Virus record (IMG/VR): IMGVR_UViG_3300045988_107080
DNA length: 56,542 bases
Source of the DNA: a virus
Direction: 5' to 3' (one strand)
The notes beneath the pieces are model-generated. The model worked only from the letters and a program-made list of their open reading frames with translations, was not told where the DNA came from and made no database searches. How positions within the stretch are numbered: the first letter of the stretch is position 1; every line of letters starts with the position of its first letter. The translations under genes were made by a program, and so were the position numbers. Below are positions 4,012-56,542 of the stretch, piece after piece.

Positions 4012-5013
4012 ATGAAAAAGTTCGAAATCACTAAAAACATGACTAGAGCGTTTGGCAAGGCCGGACTTACTTGTAAGAAGTATGCCCCTGAAGCTCTTGT
4101 AATAGCTGGTATCGTAGGTGTCGTGACAAGTGCTGTCATGGCATGTAAGGCAACAACCAAGGTAAACGATATTATCGAAGAGACTAAAGAGAACACGCAT
4201 GATCTTCATCTTGTAGCCACTGCAGCAGGTCTAAAAGAGGCTACGGACGAGTTCTCGAATGAAGATATTCGAAAGATTGATATTCTTTCTTCAAAAGAGG
4301 ACGTCAAGAACTACACTGCACAGGACCTTAAGAAAGACACGACAATTATATATACTCAGACTGCTGTTAAGTTTATAAAGCTTTATGGTCCTTCTGTAGT
4401 ACTTGGCGCTCTGTCTATAACTAGCATACTCGCGTCTAACAATATTCTTCGTAAGAGAAATGTGGCTCTTGCAGCTGCGTATGCTACTGTCGATAAGGGC
4501 TTTAAGGAATATAGAAGCCGTGTTGTCGAACGTTTCGGAAAAGATATGGACCGAGAGCTTAAGTACAACATCAAGGCTAAAGAAATCGAAGAAACTACAA
4601 AAAATTCAAAGGGCAAAGAAAAGACTGTAAAAAAGTCGATAGAAGTCGCTGATGTAAATGAGCATAGTGATTATGCACGATTCTTTGACGAGCTTTGCAC
4701 AGGTTGGAAGAGGGACGCAGAGTATAACCTTATGTTCCTTAAGCATCAGCAGAATTATGCCAACGAAAAGCTGCAGAAGCAGGGATATTTGTTCCTCAAT
4801 GATGTGTATGATATGCTCGGTATTCCGAAAACAAAGGCCGGTCAGGTAGTAGGCTGGATTTATGACGAAGCGCATCCTGATATTTATGATAACTTCGTAG
4901 ACTTCGGAATTTATGATCTGTATAATGAAAAAGCACGCGACTTTGTGAATGGTCGTGAAAAGAGCATTCTTCTTGACTTCAATGTCGACGGCAATATTCT
5001 CGATCTCATCTGA
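4012..5013 (+). CDS. membrane-anchored early protein, paralog of 1542-2330
   Basis: RBS AAAAGGAG. TM ALVIAGIVGVVTSAVMACKATTK, core ALAAAYATVDKGFKEYRSRVVERFG, C-terminal LNDVYDMLGIPKTKAGQVVGW. Confidence 0.6.
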   Translation: MKKFEITKNMTRAFGKAGLTCKKYAPEALVIAGIVGVVTSAVMACKATTKVNDIIEETKENTHDLHLVATAAGLKEATDEFSNEDIRKIDILSSKEDVKNYTAQDLKKDTTIIYTQTAVKFIKLYGPSVVLGALSITSILASNNILRKRNVALAAAYATVDKGFKEYRSRVVERFGKDMDRELKYNIKAKEIEETTKNSKGKEKTVKKSIEVADVNEHSDYARFFDELCTGWKRDAEYNLMFLKHQQNYANEKLQKQGYLFLNDVYDMLGIPKTKAGQVVGWIYDEAHPDIYDNFVDFGIYDLYNEKARDFVNGREKSILLDFNVDGNILDLI

Positions 5014-11061: not shown

Positions 11062-11090
11062 TACTAGGCATTTTCATGTATTACAATAAA

Positions 11091-11135
11091 GAGAAGCAGT
11101 AATGGACTTTACTACCATGCTGTTTCTCTTTTATA
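11091..11135 (+). terminator. intrinsic terminator
   Basis: GAGAAGCAG (11091-11099) pairs with CTGTTTCTC (11120-11128) with one G-U, followed by TTTTATATTTTT. Confidence 0.55.
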
Positions 11136-11157
11136 TTTTTGAATTGGAGGCATACAA

Positions 11158-14271: not shown

Positions 14272-14286
14272 TTACATAAAAAGTTT

Positions 14287-14320
14287 AAGACTCAATGGAA
14301 ACATTGGGTCTTTTACTTTT
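14287..14320 (+). terminator. intrinsic terminator
   Basis: AAGACTCAA (14287-14295) pairs with TTGGGTCTT (14304-14312) with one U-G, then a T-run and TTTTATATTTT. Confidence 0.65.
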
Positions 14321-14342
14321 ATATTTTAAGGAGGAAGCAGAC

Positions 14343-17917: not shown

Positions 17918-18106
17918 ATGGCAAGAGAATATGTTGTTAAAGCTACTAAGTATGGAAGAGACTGGAAGAAAATCGGAGAAGGTTTGGATTTTCTAGAAGA
18001 TAATAAAAAATATCGACTAGAATTTCATGCTTACGGATTAATGCAGGCTATCCGAGCAAAAATAGCGTTTATACGAAATAAAAGATTTAAATATTACACT
18101 TATTAA
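17918..18106 (+). CDS. hypothetical protein
   Basis: Track ORF 17807 was trimmed to the ATG after motif copy F and its RBS (MAREYVVKATKYG...). Confidence 0.5.
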   Translation: MAREYVVKATKYGRDWKKIGEGLDFLEDNKKYRLEFHAYGLMQAIRAKIAFIRNKRFKYYTY

Positions 18107-18111
18107 GAGTG

Positions 18112-18145
18112 AGGCTCAGTGATAATGCTGGGCCTTTGCTCTTTT
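18112..18145 (+). terminator. intrinsic terminator
   Basis: AGGCTCAG (18112-18119) pairs with CTGGGCCT (18128-18135) with one wobble. T-rich tail and TTTTATATTTT follow. Confidence 0.55.
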
Positions 18146-18168
18146 ATATTTTGAAAGGAGAAAAAGTA

Positions 18169-18672: not shown

Positions 18673-18710
18673 AAGCCTTAGTTAAAATATACTAGGGCTT
18701 TTCTCTTTTT
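18673..18710 (+). terminator. intrinsic terminator
   Basis: AAGCCTTAG (18673-18681) pairs with CTAGGGCTT (18692-18700) with one U-G, then TTTCTCTTTTT. Confidence 0.65.
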
Positions 18711-18742
18711 CGCGAAAACGGCATTTCCTATTATGAAAGGAG
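18709..18742 (+). promoter_or_regulatory. conserved bipartite promoter-like motif, copy H
   Basis: TTCGCGAAAA-CGGCATTTCCTA-TTATGAAAGGAG, directly after the terminator at 18673-18710. Confidence 0.5.
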
Positions 18743-18984: not shown

Positions 18985-19014
18985 GACTCAGAAAAATCTG
19001 AGTCTTTTCTTTTT
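18985..19014 (+). terminator. intrinsic terminator
   Basis: GACTCAGA-AAAA-TCTGAGTC perfect 8-bp stem followed by TTTTCTTTTT. Confidence 0.8.
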
Positions 19015-19044
19015 CGCGAAAAATGCATGCTCCTTTATGAAACA
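19013..19044 (+). promoter_or_regulatory. conserved bipartite promoter-like motif, copy I
   Basis: TTCGCGAAAA-ATGCATGCTCCT-TTATGAAACA, directly after the terminator at 18985-19014. Followed by ~200 nt without a credible ORF. Confidence 0.5.
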
Positions 19045-20373: not shown

Positions 20374-20405
20374 TTCGCGAAAAAAACATGGACTTTTATG
20401 AGAGG
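20374..20405 (+). promoter_or_regulatory. conserved bipartite promoter-like motif, copy J
   Basis: TTCGCGAAAA-AAACATGGACTT-TTATGAGAGG. Followed by hairpins, then the gene at 20539. Confidence 0.5.
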
Positions 20406-20829: not shown

Positions 20830-21358
20830 AGGACTTCATGCGCCATTTAGTGCGAGCCAGTCTAGTTGGTTAAGGTATAGTGACGAGAAAGCAATTGAGG
20901 TGTATACAAACAAAAAAGCTGCAGAGATAGGAACAAGATTTCATCAATGGGCTAAAGACACCATAGATTTAGGAATAAAGCAGCCTCGTTCTAAAAAGAC
21001 CATTTATGCATATGTTAACGATGCAATCGGATTTAAGATGAGCACAGAGGTTGTTTTATATTATTCTGATCGATTTTTCGGAACAGCAGATTCTATATGT
21101 TTTAGAAATGGAATGCTTAGAATTCACGATTTAAAAACTGGAAAAACTCCAGTACATATGGAGCAGCTTGAAGTTTATGCTGCTCTTTTTTGTTTGGAAT
21201 ATAAAGTTAAACCTAGCGATATTGATATGGAACTAAGAATCTATCAGAATGATCAAATTCTGTATCATAATCCGACCGCAGAAGATATTGTTCCGATAAT
21301 GGATAAGATTGTCCATCTTAATAATTTGCTAGAAAAAATTGATTATGAGGAGAGTTGA
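20801..21358 (+). CDS. RecB/Cas4-like PD-(D/E)XK exonuclease
   Basis: Start trimmed to the ATG after AAGGAGGAGG. Motifs GTADSICF, IHDLKTGK and EQLEVYAALF. Confidence 0.6.
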   Translation: MNFIKHSNLEGLHAPFSASQSSWLRYSDEKAIEVYTNKKAAEIGTRFHQWAKDTIDLGIKQPRSKKTIYAYVNDAIGFKMSTEVVLYYSDRFFGTADSICFRNGMLRIHDLKTGKTPVHMEQLEVYAALFCLEYKVKPSDIDMELRIYQNDQILYHNPTAEDIVPIMDKIVHLNNLLEKIDYEES

Positions 21359-21360
21359 TC

Positions 21361-24300
21361 ATGAATCCTGTTGCAGAAGAGATTATGTCATATTTTGGTT
21401 GCAGCTTAGACGATGAAGAATCATTAGAGCATATTGGCATGCCTCGTCGTAGCGGACGATATCCTTGGGGCTCAGGCAAGGACCCTTATCAGCGTAATGC
21501 TGATTTTCTCGCTCGTATCGAGTTACTTAAAAAAGAAGGATGGGAAGAAACACCCGAGAATATCAAGAATGAGTTTGGATTGACCACAACTCAGTATCGT
21601 ACTCAAAAAGGACTGGCTAAAGATGAGCGAAGAATGCTCAAAGTATCTACTGCTAAATCTCTGAAAGAAGATGGTCTTGGTCCTACAGAGATCGCTAGAA
21701 AAATGAGCGAAAGATTTGGCGAAAATATAAACGAGTCAACGGTTCGTTCATTGCTTGATAGCAAATCTGAAAGTAGAATGCTAAAAGCAAAAGAAACCGC
21801 AGATTTTATAAAAAAGAACGTTGACGAAAAGGGAATGATTCTTCTTGGTACTGGCGTAGATGTCGAGCTTAATATTTCTAAAGAAAAACTTAATCAGGCT
21901 CTTGCTCTTCTTGAAGTAGAGGGATATCATGTCCTTGGAGGTCGAGTTCCGCAGGCAAGCAACCCTAGTCAGATGACAACTATAAAAGTTATAGCTCCTC
22001 CTGACACGCCATATAAAATCAACTCTAAAGGCCAAAAAGTTTCTAGCGCCGTTTACGACTATAATAATATTCATACACTTAAGGAATATATTTCTCGTGA
22101 CGGAGGAAACACGTTCGAAAAGAAATTCAACTATCCTGAAAGTATGGACTCAAATCGCCTTATGATTAGATATAAGGAAGACGGAGGAATCGATAAAGAT
22201 GGCATTGTTGAACTTCGTCCAGGAGTAGCAGATTTGTCGCTTGGAGAGTCACGATATTCTCAGGTTCGTATAATGGTTGATGGTAACAAATATATAAAAG
22301 GCATGGCTATTTATGGCGATCCAAAAGATTTTCCTGACGGCGTTGATGTTATTTTTAACACCAACAAATCTAAGAGTGTTCCGAAAATGGATGTTCTTAA
22401 AACTATAAAGGACGATCCCGACAATCCTTTTGGTTCGTTGATAAAAGATGCCGAGCAAGGAGGACAATATTGGTACGATCCTAAAACAGGAAAGCGCGTT
22501 AGCGCAACCGATCCTAATGTTAAAGATAAAAAACTTGGTCTTATAAATAAGAGAGCAGATGAAGGAGATTGGACAGAATGGAAAGATAAACTTCCTTCGC
22601 AGTTTTTATCTAAGCAGTCTGTAGAATTGGCTAAAAAGCAGCTAAATTTGGCTGAAGCAGATAAGGTAGCAGAGTTCGATGAGATTTGTTCATTTCCAAA
22701 TCCTACAGTTAAAAAACATTTGCTAACTAAATTTGCAGATGAATGTGACTCTGCAGCCGTTCATCTTCAGGCAGCTGCTTTGCCTGGTCAGAAATACCAT
22801 GTTATTATTCCAGTTAATACGCTTAAGGACAACGAGATTTATGCTCCTGGATACGAAGATGGAACTAAACTAGCTCTTATAAGATATCCTCATGCAGGCA
22901 CATTCGAAATACCTATACTAAAGGTAAACAATAAAAACGAATTGGCAAGAGATATTATAGGAACATCGTCCATTGACGCGGTTGGAATAAATAAGAATAA
23001 TGCTGATCGTTTGTCCGGAGCAGATTTTGATGGTGACACTGTTATGTGCATACCTACACATGATAGAAAAGGTAAAGTCAGAATCACATCAACAGATGAG
23101 CTTAAAGGATTAAAAGGGTTTGATCCCAAAGATGCTTATGGTCCAGATGAAGTGAAAAAAGATTCAAACGGAAAGCTTCATTATTATAGAAACGGTGTAG
23201 AATATCGTACAATGAGTGAAGCTCATAAGCAGCAGCAAATGGGTGTAGCTTCGAATCTTATTACTGATATGACTTTAAAAGGAGCGACACCAAGCGAAAT
23301 AGAAAGAGCTGTTCGTTATAGCATGGTTGTTATCGATGCTGAAAAACACCATCTTGATTATAAGCAATGCGAACTCGATAATAATATATCTGGCCTAAAA
23401 AAAGATTATCAAAACGGCGGTGCATCTACAATCATATCAAGAAGTAAGAGTATAGAGCCTGTTCCTAAAAGACAGGGAAGCCCTCTTATAAATTATAAAG
23501 ATAAAAAATGGTATGATCCTAGTAAACCAGAAGGTGCACTTATTTGGAAAACGGCAGATGATATATATTATCCAATTAAAAAATACGATAAAAAAAATAA
23601 TGAAATAGTTATTTCTACAGAAGATGGTAAAAAGATCAGGTATAAAGCCGATGATAAAGAAGCAGCTTCAAAATATGAGCCTATAAAAAATGTTGAGCCT
23701 GGAACTGGACGCGTATATTTCACTAACAAATACGGCGATATTGTTTATAAAACAAAGATTCGTACACAAGATAGTACAAAAATGGCAGAAACAAATGATG
23801 CCCGTACTCTTATTTCTGATGCAAATAACCCCATGGAAATGCTATATGCCGACTATGCAAATCATATGAAGTCCCTGGCTAACCAAGCTCGTAAGGAGAC
23901 CATGTCTGCCGGAAAAATTGCATATTCTAAGACGGCTAAGGAAGTATATCGTAAAGAAGTTTCAGACTTAAATATTAAACTCAATGAAGCTTTAAAAAAT
24001 GCTCCTCGTGAAAGGATGGCTAATATTAAGACAGCTGCCGAAATCGACAGAAAAATAAAAAATATAATGGACGCTAATCCTGGTATGACACGAAAAGAGG
24101 CTTCTAAGAAACTCGATATTAAGAAAGCAAATCAGAGAGCGCTAACTAAATATCGTTCAGAACTTGGAGCTGTGGCTAGAAGAGATCGTTCTATAAAAAT
24201 AACTGATCGTGAATGGGAAGCTATACAAGCAGGAGCTGTTAGCGAAACAACGTTAAAGAAAATACTTAACAATACCGATATTGATGATATTAAAGAAAGA

Positions 24301-24450
24301 GCAATGCCTCGTTCTAGAACGACTTTGAGTCCAGCTAAAGTTAATCAGATTAAAGCAATGAGAGATTCCAATTACACAATTGGAGAAATAGCAAAGAAAC
24401 TTGGTGTTTCAACATCAACAGTTTCTGCATATTTGAAAGGAGTGAACTGA
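21361..24450 (+). CDS. candidate single-subunit two-barrel RNA polymerase (YonO / crAss gp66 / RdRP-like) with HTH-like termini
   Basis: LALIRYPHAGTFEIPILKV...LSGADFDGDTVMCIP parallels beta-prime NRAPTLHRLG...NADFDGDQM; ADFDGD is encoded at 23020-23037. N-terminal HTH-like GLGPTEIARKMS..NESTVRSLL and C-terminal YTIGEIAKKLGVSTSTVSAYLKG. No other RNAP subunits are present. Confidence 0.55.
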   Translation: MNPVAEEIMSYFGCSLDDEESLEHIGMPRRSGRYPWGSGKDPYQRNADFLARIELLKKEGWEETPENIKNEFGLTTTQYRTQKGLAKDERRMLKVSTAKSLKEDGLGPTEIARKMSERFGENINESTVRSLLDSKSESRMLKAKETADFIKKNVDEKGMILLGTGVDVELNISKEKLNQALALLEVEGYHVLGGRVPQASNPSQMTTIKVIAPPDTPYKINSKGQKVSSAVYDYNNIHTLKEYISRDGGNTFEKKFNYPESMDSNRLMIRYKEDGGIDKDGIVELRPGVADLSLGESRYSQVRIMVDGNKYIKGMAIYGDPKDFPDGVDVIFNTNKSKSVPKMDVLKTIKDDPDNPFGSLIKDAEQGGQYWYDPKTGKRVSATDPNVKDKKLGLINKRADEGDWTEWKDKLPSQFLSKQSVELAKKQLNLAEADKVAEFDEICSFPNPTVKKHLLTKFADECDSAAVHLQAAALPGQKYHVIIPVNTLKDNEIYAPGYEDGTKLALIRYPHAGTFEIPILKVNNKNELARDIIGTSSIDAVGINKNNADRLSGADFDGDTVMCIPTHDRKGKVRITSTDELKGLKGFDPKDAYGPDEVKKDSNGKLHYYRNGVEYRTMSEAHKQQQMGVASNLITDMTLKGATPSEIERAVRYSMVVIDAEKHHLDYKQCELDNNISGLKKDYQNGGASTIISRSKSIEPVPKRQGSPLINYKDKKWYDPSKPEGALIWKTADDIYYPIKKYDKKNNEIVISTEDGKKIRYKADDKEAASKYEPIKNVEPGTGRVYFTNKYGDIVYKTKIRTQDSTKMAETNDARTLISDANNPMEMLYADYANHMKSLANQARKETMSAGKIAYSKTAKEVYRKEVSDLNIKLNEALKNAPRERMANIKTAAEIDRKIKNIMDANPGMTRKEASKKLDIKKANQRALTKYRSELGAVARRDRSIKITDREWEAIQAGAVSETTLKKILNNTDIDDIKERAMPRSRTTLSPAKVNQIKAMRDSNYTIGEIAKKLGVSTSTVSAYLKGVN

Positions 24451-24704
24451 TGATGGAAAGTAAGTTTATGCTGACAACAGTCGATAATCCTTTTAATCCA
24501 TTCGAACAGTTTGCTTCTTGGCTTATGTTCGACATTGGTAAAGGTTATAACTCTTGTGCATACTTAGCTAGAATAGCAAATCCTACAGATGATATGTCTG
24601 ATCAAGAAATCGATGCTGAAATTGAACGAGCAATCGATGAAATCATCAAATATGATTTTCTTGGTATTTACAAGAAAATAAAAAGAAATAACACCGATAC
24701 ATAA
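24450..24704 (+). CDS. hypothetical conserved phage protein
   Basis: TGATG coupling to the upstream gene. TTVDNPFNPFEQFASWLMFD is a pattern I recall from other Firmicutes phages; function unknown. Confidence 0.5.
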   Translation: MMESKFMLTTVDNPFNPFEQFASWLMFDIGKGYNSCAYLARIANPTDDMSDQEIDAEIERAIDEIIKYDFLGIYKKIKRNNTDT

Positions 24705-24711
24705 AAGGATA

Positions 24712-24739
24712 GGGGGGGGGTCGCTAAAATTGCACCCCC
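24712..24739 (+). terminator. G9...C5 hairpin at the end of the early/middle region
   Basis: The G9 run (24712-24720) can pair with CCCCC (24735-24739) across a 14-nt loop. There is no clear T-tail, so terminator function is uncertain. Confidence 0.3.
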
Positions 24740-24790
24740 TCTTCGCATCGCCGGCCTCCTCAAAAATTCTCCGGGGGTAATTTTTATATT

Positions 24791-24816
24791 TTCAAGACCA
24801 TGTTTAAAAGAGTTCA
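24791..24816. repeat. inverted repeat, left arm (26 nt)
   Basis: TTCAAGACCATGTTTAAAAGAGTTCA. Reverse complement of 24961-24986 except for 2 adjacent positions. Confidence 0.9.
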
Positions 24817-24960
24817 CACTGGAACTGAAAGCCAGTGGCAGGGTAGAGAAGCTAAGGAGTTCTCGTTATATTCTACCTTCATCTTTCAGAATCACCTCTT
24901 CTTTAATTGTTTGCTTTCTCCTTTCTTAAAAAGTACATACAATCTTCTTATAACTCCTTA

Positions 24961-24986
24961 TGAACTCTTTTAAATGTGGTCTTGAA
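24961..24986. repeat. inverted repeat, right arm (26 nt)
   Basis: TGAACTCTTTTAAATGTGGTCTTGAA. Confidence 0.9.
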
Positions 24987-25070
24987 GTGATTCTTTTATA
25001 TTTGAAACAAGCTGGAAAGTTAGCAAAAAGTATTACTACATAATAATTATCAAAGGAGGTTAATTATTAA

Positions 25071-25386
25071 ATGCGTGTTCTTAAATTCAATGTAACCGGC
25101 CAAATTCTTAAAGCCGACAACAAGTGCGACTTTGATAATATTGTTGCAGGAAGTAAAAATTATCTGATTGCAGATTTTACATTCGATGACGAATGGAGCA
25201 AGTATAAAAAAAGTTGCTGTCTTTATAAATGGCAAAATTGAATACCCAGTTTTAATAGAAGAAAACAAATGTATTATCGATAATAACGCTCTTACTTCTG
25301 GGTGGTTTTATGTCTATGTTGTTGGGCAGCTACAAAACGAAAGAATAAACACAAATTCGGTTGGAGTAAGGCAGGTGCTTAGATAA
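25071..25386 (+). CDS. tail-fibre-module protein interrupted by a +1 frame change at an A7 run
   Basis: Frame 0 (25071-25241) reads MRVLKFNVTGQ...DFTFDDEWSKYKK and then ends after 9 more codons. The +1 frame continues VAVFINGKIEYPVLIEENK...VRQVLR to 25386. The switch point is the A7 run at 25206-25212. The joined 104-aa product reads as one domain. Confidence 0.55.
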
Positions 25387-27047
25387 TGCCAACAGTTGAT
25401 GAATTACTTAATGCTTCAAATGAAGTAACAACCTGTACAATTAATCCTGATACTCGCGAAATAATTGTTCCGGAAAAGTATAAAATTTTAGGAGTATTCT
25501 CTGACGAGAAAGTAACAAAGATTCCTTTTACTTGTCCGAGAGTTGTCGGAAATAATGTTGATCTCACAGAGTATAATCTTTATATAAATTATCAAAACGC
25601 AAGTGGCGCGAGTAATGCTTACTTAATAGACGATCTTGTTGTATCAGGAGACAACATTACATTTTCATGGTTGCTTTCAAGATATGTTACGTTTTCGCAA
25701 GGAGTTGTTAAATATAGTTTCTGTGCAAAGAAATTAGATGGCGATACGATTTCTAACGAATGGAATACAACCATTGCAACGGGCTTAGTTATTCAAGGTC
25801 TGGAAGCAACGCGAGAAATCATAGAAGAGAATCCAGACATAATTGAATCACTTATTTCCAAAGCACATACGCATGAAAACAAGTCGGTTCTTGACAAGTT
25901 TTCTGAAACCGACGGAAAGCCGACCTATAACGGCATAGCCATTGGTAGCGGTGGTACTGGTGGGGCATCAACCGCCGAAGACGTCAATTATACCAACACG
26001 CAGTTGCCGAACGTCGACAATGTCAAAGGCGCACTCGACGAGCTTATCCCTAAATCCCACACGCACGACAACAAGTGGGTGCTTGATAAGTTTGATGAAT
26101 TTTTTGGTAAGCCAATCTATGACGGCAAGGTTTTAGGCGAAGGTGTTTTTATAATTAAGGCAACTGCTAGTATGAACGACGACGGAACATATGAAGTAAT
26201 CAATCCCACATCAACTTTAGCAGAAATTGAAGCAGCCGTTGAAGACGGAAAAGTTCCGATTGCCTTGGTAGAAATTTCGCGAACATCCACTGTTATTTTA
26301 CAGTTGAAAAGCTGTGGGGAAGGAACCTGTATCTTCAGCACTATGTTGTACGGTACTGAGGCTCAGTTACATGTTGTGCAAGAAGATCAAGAAAGATGGT
26401 ACTTTATAATGAGTAGCCAACCGATAAGTGCAGAGAACGTTACCTATTATGATAAATCGGTAGAAGGCGCACTCGACGAGCTCGTTCCCAAATCCCACAC
26501 GCACGCTAACAAAGGCACACTCGACAAGCTCTCCGACTCAAACGGAAAGCTCCAATATAACGGCTCTGATGTCGGCTTAAAGGGCGATAAGGGAGACCCT
26601 GGCTCGGATGCAAATGTGACAAAAGACAATGTTATAACTGCACTCGGCTATACGCCGGAAGCGGTATCGGCACAGGTCTCCACAGGCTCAAACGTAACCC
26701 TTGCCGATAACACCGAGTACCGCCTCACCGATGTCACGACATTGACACTGACATATCCTACAGGCAACTTCGAGTGTTGGATGCGCTTAACCTTCGCGGC
26801 AAGCGGAAATATTACCGTTACTTTACCAACTGGCACAGAATATCTTGGTCCGACTCCTAATTTCAAAAATGGTGAGACGTGGGAACTCAGTTTTAAGGAC
26901 AAGGTTCTAGTTGCTCAGAAGGTTGGCGACAGCGGGGCAATTAGTGCCCCTGTCAAAGGCGTAGACTATTGGACGGAGCAAGATAAGCAGGAGATTGTTA
27001 ATGACGTCATAGCTGCCCTGCCCGATGGCACGGAGGTGAGTTACTGA
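25386..27047 (+). CDS. tail fibre protein with three HxH-type repeats
   Basis: TAATG coupling. The N-terminus resembles baseplate/fibre anchor domains. Three repeats: KAHTHENKSVLDKFSETDGKPTYNG, KSHTHDNKWVLDKFDEFFGKPIYDG and KSHTHANKGTLDKLSDSNGKLQYNG. Confidence 0.6.
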   Translation: MPTVDELLNASNEVTTCTINPDTREIIVPEKYKILGVFSDEKVTKIPFTCPRVVGNNVDLTEYNLYINYQNASGASNAYLIDDLVVSGDNITFSWLLSRYVTFSQGVVKYSFCAKKLDGDTISNEWNTTIATGLVIQGLEATREIIEENPDIIESLISKAHTHENKSVLDKFSETDGKPTYNGIAIGSGGTGGASTAEDVNYTNTQLPNVDNVKGALDELIPKSHTHDNKWVLDKFDEFFGKPIYDGKVLGEGVFIIKATASMNDDGTYEVINPTSTLAEIEAAVEDGKVPIALVEISRTSTVILQLKSCGEGTCIFSTMLYGTEAQLHVVQEDQERWYFIMSSQPISAENVTYYDKSVEGALDELVPKSHTHANKGTLDKLSDSNGKLQYNGSDVGLKGDKGDPGSDANVTKDNVITALGYTPEAVSAQVSTGSNVTLADNTEYRLTDVTTLTLTYPTGNFECWMRLTFAASGNITVTLPTGTEYLGPTPNFKNGETWELSFKDKVLVAQKVGDSGAISAPVKGVDYWTEQDKQEIVNDVIAALPDGTEVSY

Positions 27048-29035
27048 TGGCGAAGAAGCTATATGAAGAATCGTTAATTCAGGATATTGCTAACGCCATT
27101 CGTGAGAAAAATGGCGAGACAACCACCTACAAAATTGGAGAGATGGGAGCAGCAATAAAGGCTCTCTCGGGAGAAACAGAGACTTATACATTTAGTCAAG
27201 AACGCACAGAAGTCAGTAAGTTTTTAAGAGAAGTTACTTATAACCCTGCTGATTATACAATATCATCAATACCCAACTATGTCACTACCACTTCCTCTAA
27301 TCATCCCGAAGGTGTTTCTATTCAAATAAAAAAAGCAGGTAGTTTAGTTATAACTGATGGTAATACAAATAATACCATTACAAAAGCCGTTCAAGCCGGG
27401 GCAATTAAAATTTACAATTTGACCCCGAATATAATTTCTACCTTTTTTGTAATTGACTCTAATAACAAAATAATCCAACAAGGCACCATTAAGCCGACAG
27501 GAACTTGCCGCATGATCTATATGACAAATGTTGATAACGTACGCGATATTGGCGGATGGTCTTGTGATGGTGGCACAATAAAATATGGTAAGCTTTTTCG
27601 TGGCGGAGATGTTTATGGAGTTTTAACCGAGGATGGAGCTACACAGGCTCTTGATATGCTTGGAATTGAAAAAGAGATAGATTTAAGATTTGACTCAGAT
27701 TTAAATGGTAGAACTGAAAGTGGTTTTGGCAACTCTGTGGATATGCTTCATGTTGATATGACATGGAATGACTTAAATTACCAGAAAAATAGTGGCAATA
27801 TCAAAAAGATATTTGACCAATTATTTGACTATGTAATTGCGGGACATCCTACATACTTCCATTGTTCTGCTGGAGCTGATAGAACTGGAGTTGTTGCTCT
27901 TCTTTGTGAAGCGGTACTTGGTATGTCACAGTCAGATATGGATAAAGAATATGAGCTAACTTGCTTTTATTCCGGCGTGGAAAATGATAGTCAAGCCCGC
28001 CGAAGAAATGAGGCTATATGGACGAGAGAAATAAATATTATTAACTCTTATTCAGGAGCCACTTTTAGAGACAAAGCAGTTAATTATATGGTGTCATGCG
28101 GCATTACAATCGAGAAAATTAATGCTTTTAGAGCAGCAATGATTAACGGCACACCAGATATCCTAACAGCAGATATTAATACCTATACGGTAACAAAGAC
28201 ATTAACCAATATAACAACGGACAATAATGCAACGTCTGCGAAACAATATCAGCCATATATAGCGAAAATACTACCTGACGATGGGAAGATAATCGAAAAT
28301 GTTAAAGTAACAATGGGCGGAACAGATATTACCAGCGCGGTATTTGATGGTAATGTGACCGTACTAAGACGAGTAATAACAAAAAATCTTACACAATGTA
28401 CAAGTAGTAATACACGCACATATGCAATTAGTGGGCAGTCTTATGTAACAAATTTAACCGCCAATGAGGGGTATGACATTGATAGTGTAAGTATAACAAT
28501 GGGAGGTGTGGATGTGTCCACATTTTATAAAGACGGGATTGTTTCTATCCCAGAAGTAACAGGAGATATTGTAATAACAGCAACTGCAATTACACAAGGT
28601 CCCGCCTATACGAATCAGATTCCAATTAGTACGGATTCCACTGGCGCGATTTATAATAATATTGGATATAAAGATGGGTATCAAATAAGTGACAGTGGTG
28701 TTGATGAGGAACTGGGTCATAAATCTGTTACAGGGTTTATACCGATTAAGAAGGGCGATACAATTCGCATAAAAGGAGTCTACAACAATGATGTAACTTC
28801 ATGCCGAATGTGCGCTTATAATAGTTCTAAAGCTTTTGAAACGGCACGAAATGGAACAATATTTGCCTCAACTGGAGTCTATTCTTTATCAGGAGATGTA
28901 ATGACATATACTCCTAACGAGTATTTCGTGACTGATACCACTCGTTATTTTCGCTTTTCTTGTGACACCGGTGCGCACACAGGGGAAGAAGATGGCTCAA
29001 AGTTAATTATTACTATAAACGAAGAAATCGTCTAA
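27047..29035 (+). CDS. fibre-cluster protein with embedded protein-tyrosine-phosphatase-like (CX5R) domain and C-terminal Ig-like/binding domains
   Basis: NVRDIGGW...KLFRGGD...GIEKEIDLRFDSD...YFHCSAGADRTG (HCSAGADRTG is encoded at 27860-27889) matches the Y_phosphatase3-type P-loop. Two repeats of the form VxxTMGGxDxxS follow. Confidence 0.65.
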   Translation: MAKKLYEESLIQDIANAIREKNGETTTYKIGEMGAAIKALSGETETYTFSQERTEVSKFLREVTYNPADYTISSIPNYVTTTSSNHPEGVSIQIKKAGSLVITDGNTNNTITKAVQAGAIKIYNLTPNIISTFFVIDSNNKIIQQGTIKPTGTCRMIYMTNVDNVRDIGGWSCDGGTIKYGKLFRGGDVYGVLTEDGATQALDMLGIEKEIDLRFDSDLNGRTESGFGNSVDMLHVDMTWNDLNYQKNSGNIKKIFDQLFDYVIAGHPTYFHCSAGADRTGVVALLCEAVLGMSQSDMDKEYELTCFYSGVENDSQARRRNEAIWTREINIINSYSGATFRDKAVNYMVSCGITIEKINAFRAAMINGTPDILTADINTYTVTKTLTNITTDNNATSAKQYQPYIAKILPDDGKIIENVKVTMGGTDITSAVFDGNVTVLRRVITKNLTQCTSSNTRTYAISGQSYVTNLTANEGYDIDSVSITMGGVDVSTFYKDGIVSIPEVTGDIVITATAITQGPAYTNQIPISTDSTGAIYNNIGYKDGYQISDSGVDEELGHKSVTGFIPIKKGDTIRIKGVYNNDVTSCRMCAYNSSKAFETARNGTIFASTGVYSLSGDVMTYTPNEYFVTDTTRYFRFSCDTGAHTGEEDGSKLIITINEEIV

Positions 29036-29093
29036 ACTTGAAAACTCCCCAAAGGACGGCGCAAAATACGACGAATAACAGGAGGTATAGAAC

Positions 29094-29696
29094 ATGACCA
29101 GACGTCGGTTAATGATGCTTAAAAAATCAGGTGGTGGACTGCCCGAAGGCTATACCGCAGTCAATTATCTTGAAAGCACTGGTAGACAATATATTGATAC
29201 GGAAATAAGCGCTGCAATAGATTTGGGTGTGAAAATCAATTTTATGCCCAAATCTTCAGGACAGGCTTTCGGCGCGATAACATCTTTGAGAAAAGGATAC
29301 TATGGTGTAGAGTTTTCGCCAAGTAGAGGCATTACTGCTTACTGGGGAGCTGGTGGTATAGATATTAGAAAGAATTGGGAGGCAGGAGCTACTTACGAAA
29401 TTGATTTTAACTATCAAAATTCTGGCATAGCAATATTTAATGATGCTACTTTAGCGCTGCCATCGAACGGTGAAATAACACAAAATACCGTACATCTATT
29501 TAAGTTAAACGAGGGTACCACCCCTTACACCCAGTACATCAGCGGGCAAGCTTACGGAATGAAAATGACAAAGGGGCATGAAATTGTTCTTGATTTCCTA
29601 CCCGCTCTTAATCCTGACGGAGTACCTTGTATGTATGATGTTATTCGAAAAAAAGCATTTTATAATGCTGGAACGGGTGATTTCTTATGGGGGTGA
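29094..29696 (+). CDS. hypothetical fibre-associated protein
   Basis: RBS CAGGAGG. LPEGYTAVNYLESTGRQYIDTE is an N-terminal pattern I recall from many uncharacterised gut-phage proteins. Confidence 0.4.
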   Translation: MTRRRLMMLKKSGGGLPEGYTAVNYLESTGRQYIDTEISAAIDLGVKINFMPKSSGQAFGAITSLRKGYYGVEFSPSRGITAYWGAGGIDIRKNWEAGATYEIDFNYQNSGIAIFNDATLALPSNGEITQNTVHLFKLNEGTTPYTQYISGQAYGMKMTKGHEIVLDFLPALNPDGVPCMYDVIRKKAFYNAGTGDFLWG

Positions 29697-29700
29697 TTAA

Positions 29701-29982
29701 ATGTACGGAAAACTTATAGACGGCGAGCTTCGCGGTGCGCCGAGACCGATAAGAACGGCGGACGGAGACGTGTTTACAAACGCCCCGTCAATATATCTCG
29801 CTAATGGCTATAAGCCAATAATTTTAACCGATTGTCCATCCGATGGAAAGAATTACATAAGCTCGTGGACAGAAACAGAGACCGAAATCACGCAGGTGTG
29901 GACGGAAGTCCAGCAGACGGACGATGACCCGATATCAGACTCCGAGGCGCTTGAAATAATCACAGGGGGTACCGATGCATGA
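29701..29982 (+). CDS. hypothetical protein (GC-rich island)
   Basis: Clean ORF with GGGGG upstream. GC content is far above the genome background. Confidence 0.45.
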   Translation: MYGKLIDGELRGAPRPIRTADGDVFTNAPSIYLANGYKPIILTDCPSDGKNYISSWTETETEITQVWTEVQQTDDDPISDSEALEIITGGTDA

Positions 29983-30413
29983 CGCGAGCAGAAGCAAAAG
30001 CTTATCGTGACAAGATAGATGGCGTGTTGACTAAGGTCACTACAGACGCAGAAGCTTTACAATACGCAGAGCTTTATCCGCTTTGGAGCGGGTATATTGA
30101 TTATGCTGTCGGCAGTATAGTCCGCAGACCGAACGGGCTGTATAAGTGTTACAACGCAATAACGGCAAATCCGACATGGTTGCCGGAAAACACAGCTGCG
30201 CACTGGGAGCCTATCACGGTCGGCGAAGACGGCACGATAGATAACCCGATAATCGCTGCCGCTGGTATGAGGTATTTCAAGGGCAAGTACTATCTTGACG
30301 GCGGCAAAATTTACAGATGCACGCGCGATGACAGTAACGGTCAAGGAACTATAATGCAATATGTACCGTCGCAGCTTGTTGGAATTTACTTTGAAGAGGC
30401 GACCCAAAGTTAA
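29979..30413 (+). CDS. CBM5/12-like carbohydrate-binding protein (tentative)
   Basis: YAVGSIVRRPNGLYKCYNAITANPTWLPENTAAHWEPI resembles the chitin-binding W...Y..G..V...G..Y.C....W.P....W pattern. Confidence 0.4.
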   Translation: MTRAEAKAYRDKIDGVLTKVTTDAEALQYAELYPLWSGYIDYAVGSIVRRPNGLYKCYNAITANPTWLPENTAAHWEPITVGEDGTIDNPIIAAAGMRYFKGKYYLDGGKIYRCTRDDSNGQGTIMQYVPSQLVGIYFEEATQS

Positions 30414-30444: not shown

Positions 30445-30771
30445 GTGGCGAAAGTTAAGAAGTCAGAACCAACTAAAAAATTAAGACCGGGTCTGACACC
30501 AGAATCGAGAGAAAATCAGATGATAGCTCTAGCCGTCGATCTTGCTGAAAAACAGTTACTAGAAGGAACCGCCTCTTCTCAGGTTATAACTCATTTTTTA
30601 AAGCTTGGTTCTACAAAGGAGCGGCTTGAAAAAGAAAAACTGGAAGAGGAAAACAAACTACTTCGAGCTAGGACAGAAGCTCTTCAGTCTGCTAAGAGAG
30701 TCGAGGAATTGTACTCAGACGCTATTGCAGCAATGAGAAAGTATAGCGGAAACGGTGATTTGAATGAGTAA
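30445..30771 (+). CDS. putative small terminase subunit
   Basis: GTG start after GAGGAGG. Small helical protein (LAEKQLLEGTASSQVITHFLKLGS) directly upstream of the HNH gene and near TerL. The call rests mainly on position. Confidence 0.35.
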   Translation: MAKVKKSEPTKKLRPGLTPESRENQMIALAVDLAEKQLLEGTASSQVITHFLKLGSTKERLEKEKLEEENKLLRARTEALQSAKRVEELYSDAIAAMRKYSGNGDLNE

Positions 30772-31213
30772 TAGATCATATTTGGAATTAATCACCATTC
30801 CAACCTTTGAAGAGCGATTTGATTATCTTAGGCTCAAGGGAGCAGTTGGAAAAGAGACATTCGGATACGATAGATACCTTAACCAAGTCCTTTACAACTC
30901 CAGAGAGTGGAAAAGATTTAGGGACCAAATAATAGTTCGAGATAATGGATGCGATTTAGCATGCGAGGATCACGAAATACTTGGTGCTAGAGATAAAGAT
31001 GGAAAACTTCACAGACCAAAGATTATAGTCCATCACATGAACCCGATTACAGTTGAAGACGTACTTGATCGTAATCCAATGGTATTCGATCCGAACAACG
31101 TCATAACTACTACAATGAACACACACAATGCTATTCACTACGGAGATGAAACTCTGTTAGTCGCATCTCCTGTTGAACGAAGCAAGAACGACACTTGTCC
31201 TTGGCGACATTAA
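30764..31213 (+). CDS. HNH endonuclease (packaging-associated)
   Basis: WKRFRDQIIVRDNGCDLAC...IVHHMNPIT...NTHNAIH. Confidence 0.8.
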   Translation: MSNRSYLELITIPTFEERFDYLRLKGAVGKETFGYDRYLNQVLYNSREWKRFRDQIIVRDNGCDLACEDHEILGARDKDGKLHRPKIIVHHMNPITVEDVLDRNPMVFDPNNVITTTMNTHNAIHYGDETLLVASPVERSKNDTCPWRH

Positions 31214-31721: not shown

Positions 31722-32135
31722 ATGGATAATAATGAACTCTATCATTATGGCGTCCTCGGTATGAAGTGGGGTGTAAGACGATCGCCATCTCAGCTCGGTC
31801 ATAAAATCAGAATAAAAAGGAAGAAGAAACCTTCTGAACCGATTCATGAAGATTATAAGAAAGCTCATAGTAAAAAGAGCGTTTCAAGTATGAGCGATGC
31901 TGAACTTCGAAACCGCAATAATCGTCTTCAAATGGAAAGACAATATGCTCAATTAACTAAAAAGAATAGCAAAGGAAAGAAAATAGTGTCCGGTCTTATA
32001 GCCACAGCAGGAACAATTGCTGCAGCAGAAGGAGCCTATAAAACTTATAAAAGAGTTGGTAATCAAATTTTAGACAAGCTTGGCGATTATGCTGTTCGCG
32101 ATATTATGCGCAAAAACATAGGGCGTGCACTATAA
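31722..32135 (+). CDS. GMKWGxRR-motif protein, paralog 1
   Basis: N-terminus is MDNNELYHYGVLGMKWGVRR. The remainder is basic. Confidence 0.55.
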   Translation: MDNNELYHYGVLGMKWGVRRSPSQLGHKIRIKRKKKPSEPIHEDYKKAHSKKSVSSMSDAELRNRNNRLQMERQYAQLTKKNSKGKKIVSGLIATAGTIAAAEGAYKTYKRVGNQILDKLGDYAVRDIMRKNIGRAL

Positions 32136-32151
32136 AAGGAGGCGTCGAGAT

Positions 32152-33897
32152 ATGGCATTATCAAACACAGCCGTTCCAAAGTATTACGGTCAGTTTCGTG
32201 ATGCCGTAATCAGAGGCGAAATACCTGTATGTAAAGAAATCTCTATGGAGATGAACCGAATAGACGACCTTATTGCTAATCCTGCTGTCTATTACGATGA
32301 TCAGGCTGTTGAAGGTTTTATCGATTATTGTGAGAGTGAATTAACTCTAACTGACGGTGAAGATTTGAATCTACTGGATTCATTCAAACTGTGGGCAGAG
32401 GAGATATTCGGTTGGTATTACTTTGTTGAAAGAAGCGTGTATGAACCGTCTCCAGATGGTCATGGTGGACATTATGTTACAAAGTCGATAAAGAAGAGAC
32501 TGATAAACAAACAGTATTTGATCGTGGCCAGAGGTGCGGCGAAATCAATGTATGGCTCTTGCATTCAGAACTTCTTTTTGAACGTCGATACTTCTACAAC
32601 TCACCAAATTACTACGGCTCCTACAATGAAGCAAGCAGAAGAAGTTATGTCGCCAATTCGAACCGCTATAACAAGAGCTAGAGGGCCTCTTTATAAATTC
32701 CTTACTGATGGTTCTTTGCAGAATACTACAGGTTCAAAAGCGAATCGTGTGAAACTGGCATCTACTAAAAAGGGTGTCGAAAATTTCTTAACAGGTTCTT
32801 TACTTGAGATTAGACCTATGAGTATTGATAAGCTCCAGGGTCTTAGATGTAAGATTGCTACTGTTGATGAATGGCTGTCCGGAGACATAAGAGAAGATGT
32901 CATAGGTGCAATAGAGCAGGGCGCTTCTAAGAACGATGATTATCTCATCGTTGCTATAAGCTCAGAAGGTACGGTACGTAATGGAAGCGGCGATACAATC
33001 AAAATGGAGTTAATGGACATCCTTAAGGGCGAGTATATAAATCCACATGTTTCGATTTGGTGGTACAAGCTCGATTCTATCGACGAGGTTGCGCATCCTG
33101 AGATGTGGTTAAAAGCTAATCCGAATCTCGGTAAGACGGTTACCTATGAGACGTATCAGTTAGACGTTGATAGAGCCGAGAATGCACCAGCGACTAGAAA
33201 TGAAATTTTGGCTAAGCGTTTCGGCATACCTATGGAGGGTTATACATATTACTTTACTTATGAAGAAACCCTTCCTCATCGTAAAAGAGACTTTTGGAGA
33301 ATGCCGTGCTCGATGGGAGCGGATCTTTCACAGGGAGATGACTTCTGTGCGTTTACATTTATGTTCCCGCTTGCTAGAGGTGAGTTTGGTGTTAAGACTC
33401 GAAACTATATAACCGAATTAACCCTCATGAAACTTCCGTCTGCTATGAGAAGCAAGTACGACGAGTTTATAAAAGAGGGCAGCTTGATAGTCATGCCGGG
33501 AACTATTCTGGACATGATGCAGGTTTACGAAGATTTGGATAATCATATAGCTCAGTGTGAGTATGATGTACGCTGCTTTGGATTCGACCCATATAATGCG
33601 AGGGAATTCGTAGAGAGATGGGAACGAGAAAACGGACCGTTTGGTATTGAGAAAGTTATACAGGGAGCTAAGACAGAGTCGGTTCCTTTGGGTGAACTTA
33701 AGAAGCTTGCCGAAGAAAGAATGCTTTTGTTCGATGAGGAGCTTATGACTTTTGCGATGGGTAACTGCATTACTCTTGAAGATACCAATGGAAATAGAAA
33801 ACTTTTAAAGAAGCGATATGATCAGAAGATAGATGCTGTTGCAGCTATGATGGATGCTTTTATCGCTTATAAGATTAACAGCGAAGCATTTGAGTAA
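32152..33897 (+). CDS. terL: terminase large subunit
   Basis: Start at the ATG after AAAAGGAGG. Walker A-like VARGAAKS, Walker B ATVDEW, C-terminal nuclease-like region. Size and position are typical. Confidence 0.8.
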   Translation: MALSNTAVPKYYGQFRDAVIRGEIPVCKEISMEMNRIDDLIANPAVYYDDQAVEGFIDYCESELTLTDGEDLNLLDSFKLWAEEIFGWYYFVERSVYEPSPDGHGGHYVTKSIKKRLINKQYLIVARGAAKSMYGSCIQNFFLNVDTSTTHQITTAPTMKQAEEVMSPIRTAITRARGPLYKFLTDGSLQNTTGSKANRVKLASTKKGVENFLTGSLLEIRPMSIDKLQGLRCKIATVDEWLSGDIREDVIGAIEQGASKNDDYLIVAISSEGTVRNGSGDTIKMELMDILKGEYINPHVSIWWYKLDSIDEVAHPEMWLKANPNLGKTVTYETYQLDVDRAENAPATRNEILAKRFGIPMEGYTYYFTYEETLPHRKRDFWRMPCSMGADLSQGDDFCAFTFMFPLARGEFGVKTRNYITELTLMKLPSAMRSKYDEFIKEGSLIVMPGTILDMMQVYEDLDNHIAQCEYDVRCFGFDPYNAREFVERWERENGPFGIEKVIQGAKTESVPLGELKKLAEERMLLFDEELMTFAMGNCITLEDTNGNRKLLKKRYDQKIDAVAAMMDAFIAYKINSEAFE

Positions 33898-42414: not shown

Positions 42415-42792
42415 ATGATAAGTTTCAGACAAAAGGGCGACTTTTCTAACTTGACTCGTTATTTGGAGAGAGCAAAAAATGTCACTAAAATTGGCGATCT
42501 TGACAAGTATGGTCGAGAGGGTGTAGCCGCCCTTGCGTCTGCGACACCTGTCGATTCTGGTTTAACCGCTAGTTCATGGTATTACAAGATCGAACATCAA
42601 AATGGATCTGTAACTATATCTTTTTATAACTCAAATGTTAATAAAGGAGTCCCGATCGCTATAATTTTACAATATGGTCACGGAACTCGGAATGGAGGCT
42701 GGGTAGAAGGGATAGATTATATCAATCCTGCAATCCAGCCTATTTTTGATAGAATTGCCGACGCTGCGTGGAAGGAGGTAACTAAAGCATGA
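42415..42792 (+). CDS. HK97 gp10-family tail/neck component
   Basis: ATPVDSGLTASSW...ILQYGHGT...INPAIQPIFDRI matches the gp10-family pattern. Confidence 0.5.
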   Translation: MISFRQKGDFSNLTRYLERAKNVTKIGDLDKYGREGVAALASATPVDSGLTASSWYYKIEHQNGSVTISFYNSNVNKGVPIAIILQYGHGTRNGGWVEGIDYINPAIQPIFDRIADAAWKEVTKA

Positions 42793-48413: not shown

Positions 48414-48415
48414 GT

Positions 48416-50974: not shown

Positions 50975-50975
50975 C

Positions 50976-52034: not shown

Positions 52035-52042
52035 TATTTTCT

Positions 52043-53815: not shown

Positions 53816-53818
53816 AAT

Positions 53819-56334: not shown

Positions 56335-56457
56335 TCATCACCATAGCCTTTTGCATGTATTTCTTTTACTAACGATCTCTAGAAGCGTCTTTTGTCTTAG
56401 GCATATTCTGTCTGGTCAATAGGCGCTTCTTTTATATTCGCGATTTATACTTTGTCT

Positions 56458-56542
56458 ATTTTTTTTTCAAATTCTCCATAAAATTCGCGAAAATTACATT
56501 CCATATTATGAAGAGAAAGTTAGGATGAAACCGGAACGGTCG
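56458..56542. repeat. terminal redundancy copy 2 (identical to 1-85)
   Basis: Same 85 nt as positions 1-85. Consistent with circular assembly overlap or a short direct terminal repeat. Confidence 0.95.
56484..56515 (+). promoter_or_regulatory. conserved bipartite promoter-like motif (duplicate of copy A inside the terminal redundancy)
   Basis: Identical to 27-58. Confidence 0.5.

Follow-up and report, generated by a model that had tools for sequence, protein, structure and literature searches.

The IMG/VR virus record IMGVR_UViG_3300045988_107080, a stretch of 56,542 nucleotides (nt) that we refer to as the window, carries every gene on the + strand. Judged by its sequence, it is the circularly permuted genome of a cos phage of the Lactococcus 1706, Faecalibacterium Oengus, and Arthrobacter AU supercluster. 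The genes of a two-barrel RNA polymerase and of an 84-residue protein are followed by the cohesive end site (cos), a long inverted repeat, and the first gene of the late region (Table 1). The mature left end begins at position 24758, the mature right end stops at 24757, and the repeat starts 34 nt inside the left end. The repeat closes a structured element that is new, well supported, and uncatalogued in Rfam; its general kind, a non-coding leader or processing structure of a phage beside cos, is familiar.

The inverted repeat and its family

An inverted-repeat search of the window returns two arms of 26 nt each, which are complementary at 24 of 26 positions (92%) and enclose 144 nt, exactly where an earlier note on this DNA had placed them. 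The strand-neutral score of the repeat is 44, whereas the best repeats of shuffled 390-nt stretches have a median score of 16 and never exceed 24. The two mismatches are adjacent and, as the note stated and as is read directly from the sequence, pair as U·G and G·U when a transcript has the + sense and as C·A and A·C when it has the - sense. The predicted + strand fold has an energy of -61.5 kcal/mol (z = -6.4). Among the further pairings proposed for the interior, CTGAAAG/CTTTCAG is part of the minimum-energy fold of the + strand, and CACTGG/CCAGTG and TAAGGAGTT/AACTCCTTA are absent from it. The interior is indeed pyrimidine-rich, with three blocks that resemble an anti-Shine-Dalgarno sequence: CACCTCT at 24893-24899, the octamer CTCCTTTC, which is predicted to lie in an apical loop, and a further CTCCTT-type block at 24954-24959.

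The surrounding stretch free of open reading frames (ORFs), 24705-25070 (~366 nt), is the largest in the window, as the note had it, but is essentially tied with the one from 56335 to 245 after removal of an 85-nt overlap of the record's ends. No standard annotation explains the feature, also as claimed. Rfam 15 has no match in the whole window at gathering thresholds, and at E <= 10 it gives for 24500-25300 chance-level matches only, none overlapping the element. A scan of the window finds no tRNA or tmRNA, and nucleotide searches of GenBank phages with the region find no homologue. The feature goes unmentioned in the papers on these phages that were searched (PMC5679793; bioRxiv 10.1101/842583), and nothing in the passages searched of a catalogue of ~10,000 candidate viral structured RNAs identifies this motif, which the catalogue may contain (PMC10690425). 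Several familiar kinds of element were considered and rejected: an intrinsic terminator (the loop has 144 nt, the U-tract comes 7 nt past the stem, and most members of the family described below have no U-tract), a retron msr-msd RNA (the neighbours are the genes of the 84-residue protein, of phrog_19695, and of terS-like proteins, with no adjacent reverse transcriptase), and a phi29-type pRNA (there is no Rfam match, and the phage has cos, a TerS-like protein, HNH, and TerL).

Relatives were reached through the polymerase protein and through a degenerate cos pattern, which retrieved at least 120 viral and at least 120 metagenomic loci. Among the matches listed, 176 of 216 unique cos-downstream stretches carry an inverted repeat scoring at least 30, compared with a shuffle maximum of 24. 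The repeats form 72 sequence clusters with arms of 21-44 nt, spans of 84-215 nt, and ~20-150 nt enclosed, and the element starts 0-215 nt past the cos block. When 34 cluster representatives are aligned with MAFFT by sequence only, both arms and the interior motif come into register. On this alignment, RNAalifold finds a single closing helix of 28 base pairs (bp), with double compensatory changes at 28 of 28 pairs; the conserved pairing in homologous regions that the earlier note had set as a check is thereby found. The fraction of paired cells is 92.8%, compared with 68.2 ± 0.9% in shuffled alignments (none of 500 reaches the observed value) and 36-50% in slid registers, and 259 cells are doubly changed, compared with 70 in shuffles. 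At one column pair (24/221), 10 of the 34 sequences have no standard pair, mostly a pyrimidine opposite a pyrimidine, in the context AAC-GAGC opposite GCTC-Y-TT. Part of each arm is conserved in sequence (TTTAAAnGAGCTCAT), and the outer arm segments vary freely between clusters. Evolution within clusters amounts to 9 events only, too few to use.

A covariance model built from the 34-sequence alignment, R1, finds the element once in the window (Table 1). The antisense shadow of this match scores 31.4 bits, and the next-best matches have E > 0.3. Faecalibacterium phage FP_oengus, which is outside the seed, is matched at 49.8 bits. Of 100 further loci, about 78 have one match to the model each, and those whose coordinates were checked have it on the cos-sense strand. 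Scores are 58-99 bits in the sense and 31-48 bits in the antisense orientation, an about twofold difference. Two loci, L038 and L043, have the same cos block and no element.

The orientation is fixed. None of 177 unique elements is inverted, and the near-identical elements of loci L002, L003, L013, and L126 are co-oriented with the window at 99-100% identity. L013 and L126 are 100% identical to the window over 24794-24993, and the same holds for the cos block on its left-end side, from 24749; their flanks, aligned to 23894-25694, are 53-85% identical on the left and unrelated, at about 55%, on the right. Going by this alignment, the two loci hold a mosaic cassette with sharp borders, one of them a breakpoint just past TTTTATATTT. 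Such cassette-like behaviour in mosaic genomes, the 26-bp inverted repeats around 144 bp, and the copies of TTTTATATT on both outer sides would suit the invertible switch (an inverton, or a switch of the Mu G / P1 C type) that the note had offered, or a miniature transposon. The copies of TTTTATATT are present as claimed (24782-24790 and 24994-25002), but 7 nt lie between the right one and the arm, a flanking duplication is absent from other members, and the sequence proves to be a genome-wide intergenic motif (11 copies compared with 2.9 expected, 9 of them on the + strand) that usually comes after terminator-like hairpins (11129, 14317, 18142, 56430) and is not private to the repeat. Besides the lack of any inverted copy and the co-orientation of the four near-identical ones, there is one element per genome, always at the same locus. 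The ORFs scanned, which do not include every small ORF, encode no invertase, integrase, transposase, or resolvase domain, in agreement with the note's remark that no invertase is encoded. The C-terminal helix-turn-helix (HTH) region of the polymerase has a weak match to phrog_125, 'DNA invertase', and scores 23.5 bits with Pfam HTH_7, the HTH of resolvase (cutoff 23.8). The interior encodes nothing conserved and holds one weak (9/12) sigma-70-like match at 24844-24872, no more than shuffles give. We therefore abandoned the inverton, on its fixed orientation and for want of a recombinase in the scan, a conserved ORF, or an internal promoter above shuffle level, and the miniature transposon, on its single copy at the cos locus and the lack of an abutting target-site duplication; a switch or transposon is the least probable of all explanations, with next to no weight left.

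Strand preference and the exposed octamer

Over the 72 clusters, the mismatches of the stem, read on the + strand, comprise 178 G·U, 37 A·C, and 40 transversions. Base composition predicts a ratio of G·U to A·C near 1.1; therefore, the + strand fold is the selected one. At the family level, a selected + strand helix is strongly supported. The note had argued for such a helix from the two wobbles of the window, which are insufficient alone; the claim now stands on the covariation at all 28 pairs, the excess of G·U, and the higher model scores of the sense strand. The interiors of the family have a GC skew of -0.16 and an AT skew of -0.26, opposite in sign to those of the genome (roughly +0.13 and +0.09).

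The same mismatch counts bear on the proposal that the interior is a small protein gene of the minus strand, MKVEYNENSLASLPCHWLSVPV in the window, with GAAAGGAG/GAGGTGAT as its ribosome-binding site. The 22-codon ORF pointed out in the note exists, with GAGGTGAT, 8 nt, and then ATG in the window, and across the family an ATG stands 4-10 nt past AARGGAG in 19 of 79 cases, compared with 12% by chance. However, 76% of the sites have no start codon, the ORFs have 3-34 codons, are unrelated, and yield no conserved peptide, so that the window's ORF finds no counterpart in relatives. In addition, the stem mismatches are A·C on the minus strand, and all other genes are on the + strand. A minus-strand gene is thus very improbable.

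The octamer CTCCTTTC is at least 90% invariant in the 34-sequence alignment. It occurs in 65 of the 72 clusters and in 164 of the 177 elements, never inverted, and its mean probability of being unpaired is 0.74, compared with 0.52 for the interiors. As RNA, CUCCUUUC, it is the exact complement of the common ribosome-binding site GAAAGGAG and equals the core of the 3' end of Firmicutes 16S ribosomal RNA (rRNA). We considered and rejected a specific sequestration of the downstream ribosome-binding site by the loop: cognate loop duplexes (-12.6 kcal/mol) are no better than non-cognate ones (-12.3 kcal/mol, p = 0.18).

The Firmicutes have small RNAs with C-rich loops, of the RsaE/RoxS type. By analogy, the element could be a trans-acting small RNA, closed by the stem (~200 nt in the window, ending at TTTTATATTT), whose CU-rich loop or loops pair with Shine-Dalgarno regions of host or phage. 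The invariant and mostly unpaired CUCCUUUC with its exact complementarity to GAAAGGAG, extra ACCUCC/CUCCUU blocks in many members, a long helix that protects the ends, and the U-rich tract after the 3' arm of the window are all in keeping with this proposal. On the other hand, an anti-Shine-Dalgarno octamer cannot tell host from phage messages, most members have no terminator past the 3' arm, and no target co-varies with the loop, which together make a trans-acting small RNA rather improbable.

The 3' arm resembles the boxA of rrn operons. Its consensus, GGGTTCnTTTAAATACT, differs from boxA by one substituted and one extra base and is base-paired in the helix. The corresponding stretch in the window is GAACTCTTTTAAATG, and Firmicutes rrn leaders and spacers read TGTTCTTTGAAAACT; the published boxA consensus is GYTCTTTAANA (PMC5725501). 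We take this as a resemblance only. No antitermination protein of the N or Q kind turned up in the family scans, which included no search aimed at such proteins.

The cos site and the genes around the element

Positions 1-85 and 56458-56542 of the window are identical. This identity stems from the overlap of a circular assembly and does not mark a terminal repeat of the phage; its DNA really ends at cos. The cluster AU phages have defined ends with a 9-base 3' extension, 5'-CGCCGGCCT (PMC5679793). The record of Arthrobacter phage Arcadia, whose ends are experimentally defined, ends in ...GCATCGCCGGCCT (in longer form ...GGGGGAGGGGGTCTCGCAAAAGGTACCCCCCCTCTGCATCGCCGGCCT) and starts with CCCCAAAAAATCCCCGGGGG, and joining the two reproduces 24711-24778 of the window. 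Lactococcus phage 1706 has the same arrangement of ends. Moreover, about a dozen of 17 contigs of IMG/VR relatives end ~200-435 nt past the polymerase gene, and six of these break off right at the ...CAT/AT in front of the overhang or a few bases short of it, which is where contigs with blunted 3' overhangs should stop. The contig L014 (IMGVR_UViG_3300045988_068698) has the Nextera adapter CTGTCTCTTATACACATCTGACGCTGCCG as its last ~30 nt, an untrimmed artefact in a public viral contig.

Two hairpins accompany the cut. On the right-end side, a G/C hairpin of the form GGGAGGGGG-loop-CCCCCTCCC recurs in every relative, Arcadia among them, to a polymerase identity as low as 49%, and phage 1706 has a weaker GGGGGG-loop version. 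The other hairpin straddles the junction, within the conserved block ATCGnnnGCCTCCyTnAAAAwTyyCCGGnGG, which served as the pattern for retrieving relatives. Folding predicts it for the window and for two of three relatives, FP_oengus being the exception; from the predicted fold, it would act as a terminator.

Table 1 Coordinates of the element, of cos, and of neighbouring and other features in the window
Feature	Position	Strand	Basis or remark
Two-barrel (YonO/RdRP-like) single-subunit RNA polymerase homologue with C-terminal HTH	21355-24450	+	phrog_4291, 1112 bits
84-residue conserved protein, phrog_4303	24450-24704	+	Last gene before the right end; kept in all relatives
cos-proximal G/C hairpin, G9 ... 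TCGCTAAAATTGCA ... CCCCC	24712-24742	+	Right-end side of the cut; folded
Cohesive end, 9-nt 3' overhang CGCCGGCCT	24749-24757	+	Homology to phages with defined ends; contig ends
Terminator-like hairpin GCCUCC (24754-24759) / GGGGGU (24773-24778), then U-rich UAAUUUUUAUAUUUU	24754-24792	+	Straddles the cos junction
5' arm of the closing helix, TTCAAGACCATGTTTAAAAGAGTTCA	24791-24816	+	Inverted-repeat search; family consensus ..AGTnTTTAAAnGAGCTCATAnGG..
Covariance-model match, sole copy in the window	24793-24984	+	R1, 58.2 bits, E = 8e-11
Pyrimidine-rich interior with sub-hairpins	24817-24960	+	Predicted fold; interior composition of the family
CTCCTTTC, anti-Shine-Dalgarno-like octamer	24918-24925	+	12-nt apical loop on stem UGCUUU/AAAGUA in the predicted fold
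3' arm of the closing helix, TGAACTCTTTTAAATGTGGTCTTGAA	24961-24986	+	Inverted-repeat search; family consensus GGGTTCnTTTAAATACT
TTTTATATTT tract, 7 nt past the 3' arm	24994-25003	+	Possible attenuating U-tract, specific to the window-type element
Shine-Dalgarno sequence AAAGGAGG	25052-25059	+	Precedes the first late-region gene
First late-region gene, two overlapping ORFs	25071-25241 and 25168-25386	+	Both match phrog_19695
Terminase small-subunit-like gene	30445-30771	+	phrog_4259, motif RPGLTPESRENQ
HNH gene	30764-31213	+	After the terS-like gene
TerL gene	32125-33897	+	After HNH
Promoter-like motif sites	28-42 (= 56485-56499), 180-194, 18710-18724, 19014-19028, 20375-20389	+	Motif scan

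The cos site immediately upstream is the more telling neighbour of the element, which the earlier note had missed in describing it as lying upstream of tail-fibre genes. Fibre-like genes do follow, at 25071-30413 (~5 kb), with collagen-like sequences, repeated KSHTHxNK motifs, and a CBM_5_12 domain; however, they carry no family annotation, and the canonical tail module is at 42789-55804. In most relatives, a terS-like gene is directly 3' of the element, which indicates that the element stays with cos and not with a particular gene.

This position raises the question of a packaging signal. In phage lambda cosB, inverted R3 and R2 sites flank an IHF bend next to cosN. In a cosB-like signal, the arms would be inverted TerS binding sites and the T-rich interior a bendable spacer. 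The element resembles cosB in its site relative to the cut and the terminase genes, being on the first-packaged side of the cut and, in most relatives, between cos and the terS-like gene; in its inverted elements around a spacer; in part of each arm being conserved in sequence (TTTAAAnGAGCTCAT); and in that it differs between related phages and travels with cos, as in L013 and L126, where the element and the left-end cos side match the window completely in a background of 53-85% identity. The similarity of the arms also tracks that of TerS, but both follow phylogeny, so that this point is non-discriminating. Unlike cosB, the family shows covariation with a G·U bias, helices of up to 44 bp, and a variable distance from cos, which point to a folded single strand. 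In particular, an excess of 178 G·U over 37 A·C is not expected for double-stranded protein sites, the complementarity is unbroken over 21-44 bp including the freely varying outer segments, the distance from the cos block ranges over 0-215 nt, the invariant and strand-fixed CTCCTTTC lies in predicted loops, and L038 and L043 share the cos block without the element. A cosB-like signal is therefore unlikely, though of the alternatives it deserves the most attention; a dual role, as RNA and as packaging DNA, is possible.

The polymerase has the catalytic motif GADFDGD at residues 555-561 and HTH domains at the C-terminus, and its gene is the penultimate one of the right arm of the mature genome. 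In relatives, this gene and that of the 84-residue protein are likewise the last two, and the end of the contig or record comes next. The two-barrel polymerase is a signature gene of the 1706/Oengus/AU/BI supercluster (bioRxiv 10.1101/842583). A PDB sequence search with the polymerase gives no match, and NCBIfam is uninformative.

On the other side of the element, the two ORFs of the first late gene match consecutive parts of phrog_19695 and are split near an A-run at ~25211; a sequencing or assembly frameshift, a pseudogene, or programmed slippage could account for the split. The 553-residue protein encoded at 25386-27047 contains three PKSHTHxNKxxLDKF repeats and a collagen-like GLKGDKGDPG, has no Pfam or NCBIfam match, and looks like a fibre or receptor-binding protein. 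The 662-residue protein of the fibre-like cluster encoded at 27047-29035 has a tyrosine-phosphatase domain (Pfam Y_phosphatase3, 1.2e-23), unusual for such a neighbourhood. Past TerL, the rightward order is portal, protease-capsid fusion, tail tube protein, tape measure, and tail genes. The 595-residue ORF at 36787-38574 matches the head maturation protease phrog_3270 (794 bits) and, at its C-terminus, a major head protein family, and its product appears to be the protease-capsid fusion. In the early region, there are paralogous DUF6353 (phrog_2152) genes at 1542-2330 and 4012-5013.

Two further features recur in the window. Hairpins followed by (C)TCTTTTATATTT(T), directly before the next Shine-Dalgarno sequence, are found at 11090-11140, 14285-14330, 18105-18155, and 56380-56440. 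Their stem mismatches are also + strand G·U pairs, and they are probably the intrinsic terminators of the phage. A promoter-like motif, TCGCGAAAAnnnCAT followed by 5-6 nt and (T)ATTATGA(A/G)AG, occurs at five distinct + strand sites; its 15-nt core has 7 matches in all, compared with 0.33 expected. The sites all lie in the early/middle half of the genome, three of them (180, 18710, and 19014) directly after a T-rich tract, and their spacing is not that of sigma-70 promoters. In addition, the loop of the cos G/C hairpin contains the motif's first half, at 24721-24735. The motif could be the recognition site of the polymerase HTH or of another phage regulator.

A proposed structured leader of the late transcript

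The element comes right after the cos hairpins, and across the family the first start codon is a median of 52 nt past the 3' arm. We therefore read the element as an untranslated leader of the late transcript, and more precisely as a + strand structured leader RNA of the late operon that serves RNase III-type processing or the control of expression. We put the probability of this reading at about 0.5. We infer that the folded molecule is RNA, that it is transcribed, and that it is cut by RNase III or bound by Nus factors, and likewise what it would regulate. Late-gene transcription may be carried out by the phage's own YonO-like polymerase; Nus factors are not known to matter for a YonO-like enzyme.

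On this leader reading, the element would lie, in the genome with joined ends, between the right-arm genes of the YonO-like polymerase and the 84-residue protein and the first gene of a ~31-kilobase (kb) rightward late region. Rightward transcription from the polymerase operon would meet the cos G/C hairpin and then the terminator-like hairpin at the junction. The late transcript, made rightward, would open with the untranslated element, which would fold into a stem of 26-45 bp with a pyrimidine-rich interior and display the invariant CUCCUUUC loop. An RNase III-type cut would then process or insulate the 5' end of the late messenger RNA (mRNA), possibly releasing a stable stem-closed RNA. We propose this step because the long stem is of the type of RNase III substrates: such substrates have at least ~20 bp of near-uninterrupted double-stranded RNA, and the stem, if it is RNA as we suppose, has 26 bp in the window and 21-44 bp in the family. 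The anti-Shine-Dalgarno loop and the boxA-like 3' strand may contact ribosome-binding sites or the elongation and antitermination machinery. In these ways, the element would process, insulate, or gate late-gene expression, and in the window type only, the U-rich tract after the stem could also attenuate it.

Several observations weigh against the leader reading. G·T pairs are tolerated in single-stranded DNA too, so the strand bias alone is no proof of RNA. The minus strand of the window folds nearly as well as the + strand (-60.6 kcal/mol, z = -4.9), and therefore the sequence of the window alone cannot tell which strand matters. Apart from generic pairing of Shine-Dalgarno and anti-Shine-Dalgarno sequences, the loop motif does not co-vary with the ribosome-binding site downstream. 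The model has no match in Arcadia or in phage 1706 at E <= 1; phage 1706 has an analogous repeat with CTCC-type motifs inside, recognized by eye only. No acceptable sigma-70-type promoter is found between cos and the 5' arm, and some relatives leave just 4 nt between the cos block and the arm. Transcription would thus depend on read-through of the terminator-like hairpin at cos, on a promoter overlapping cos, or on a promoter of the phage polymerase.

The first and the last of these points would be accommodated if the folded strand were DNA. Hairpins of about this size, long and imperfect, serve plasmids as single-strand origins. A + strand single-stranded DNA hairpin could prime the lagging strand in an sso/ssi-like manner during rolling-circle synthesis of concatemers, or be an entry site for a YonO/RdRP-like polymerase or a primase-polymerase. 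The wobble bias fits G·T pairs equally well, no sigma-70-type promoter feeds the element, and among the phage's products are a primase-polymerase fusion, a helicase, and a polymerase that looks promoter-less. However, iterons, an AT-rich unwinding element, and recognisable sso signatures are all lacking; G·U or G·T takes up ~1 in 10 stem positions, which is much better tolerated in RNA; and the constant site upstream of the first late gene, together with the anti-Shine-Dalgarno octamer, fits a role in mRNA better. We consider such a DNA hairpin improbable, and a late leader RNA the better account of the same strand.

Known leader RNAs provide several precedents for a late leader. RNase III cuts sites in T7 early mRNA, lambda leaders, and the stems flanking 16S rRNA. 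Like the R0.3-type sites of T7 and the 16S stems, the element has a near-perfect helix of more than 20 bp, is non-coding, and lies just before the first gene of a presumed polycistronic transcript. As a putative ~100-200-nt untranslated structured start of a very long operon, it also resembles the boxA-boxB of lambda nut, HK022 put, and the 6S leader of lambda pR'-tR'; here as in those systems, the operon contains internal terminator-like hairpins, and the 3' strand resembles boxA. Unlike them, it has no homology to N, Q, or put and no Rfam match, and its boxA-like stretch is one nucleotide longer and sequestered in the helix.

A further parallel is offered by SPbeta, where an unannotated non-coding RNA is located at the start of the YonO-dependent late operon (PMC5467207). 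In both cases, the non-coding RNA, putative here, is between the gene of a two-barrel polymerase and the late structural genes, but the gap in SPbeta is 1.7 kb, and the yonN-yonK gap has no similarity to the model in sequence or structure, which also speaks against the leader reading. With the pRNA of phi29, the element shares its place at the left end of a linear genome, a size of about 120-170 nt, and 5' and 3' ends that pair in a terminal helix; the phage has cos, TerS, HNH, and TerL instead of terminal-protein DNA, and the interior architectures are unrelated.

There is also a likeness to rrn operons. As in these operons, distant 5' and 3' strands pair, and the 3' part of the enclosed RNA carries CUCCUUUC beside a boxA-like sequence. 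Unlike in the 16S precursor stems, ~20-150 nt are enclosed, which are rRNA-like in the octamer only, and cleavage here is a proposal; furthermore, the boxA-like sequence is on the 3' strand and base-paired, whereas rrn leaders carry boxA on the 5' side. By this analogy, the element might be a miniature mimic of the 16S rRNA precursor, with a processing stem, an exposed anti-Shine-Dalgarno octamer near the 3' side, and a boxA-like 3' strand, a conjecture that we hold to be doubtful at best. If true, the phage would borrow the antitermination and processing machinery of host rRNA for its 31-kb late operon, or, alternatively, the excised RNA would be an anti-Shine-Dalgarno decoy that retunes late translation initiation. 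Another idea is that the element marks the initiation region of the YonO-like polymerase.

The element is a candidate control point at the junction of the joined ends, between the gene of a YonO-like polymerase and the late genes. It may bear on how YonO-like polymerases find late operons and on how genomes with co-directional genes insulate late expression. In this abundant group, which comprises gut and dairy phages, the strongly covarying, strand-specific element was found at about 180 different cos sites, and direct testing is feasible in cultured members, Lactococcus phage 1706 and Faecalibacterium phage FP_oengus. In practice, the conserved cos block and the element together are a marker that locates the true genome ends in metagenomic assemblies of the group.

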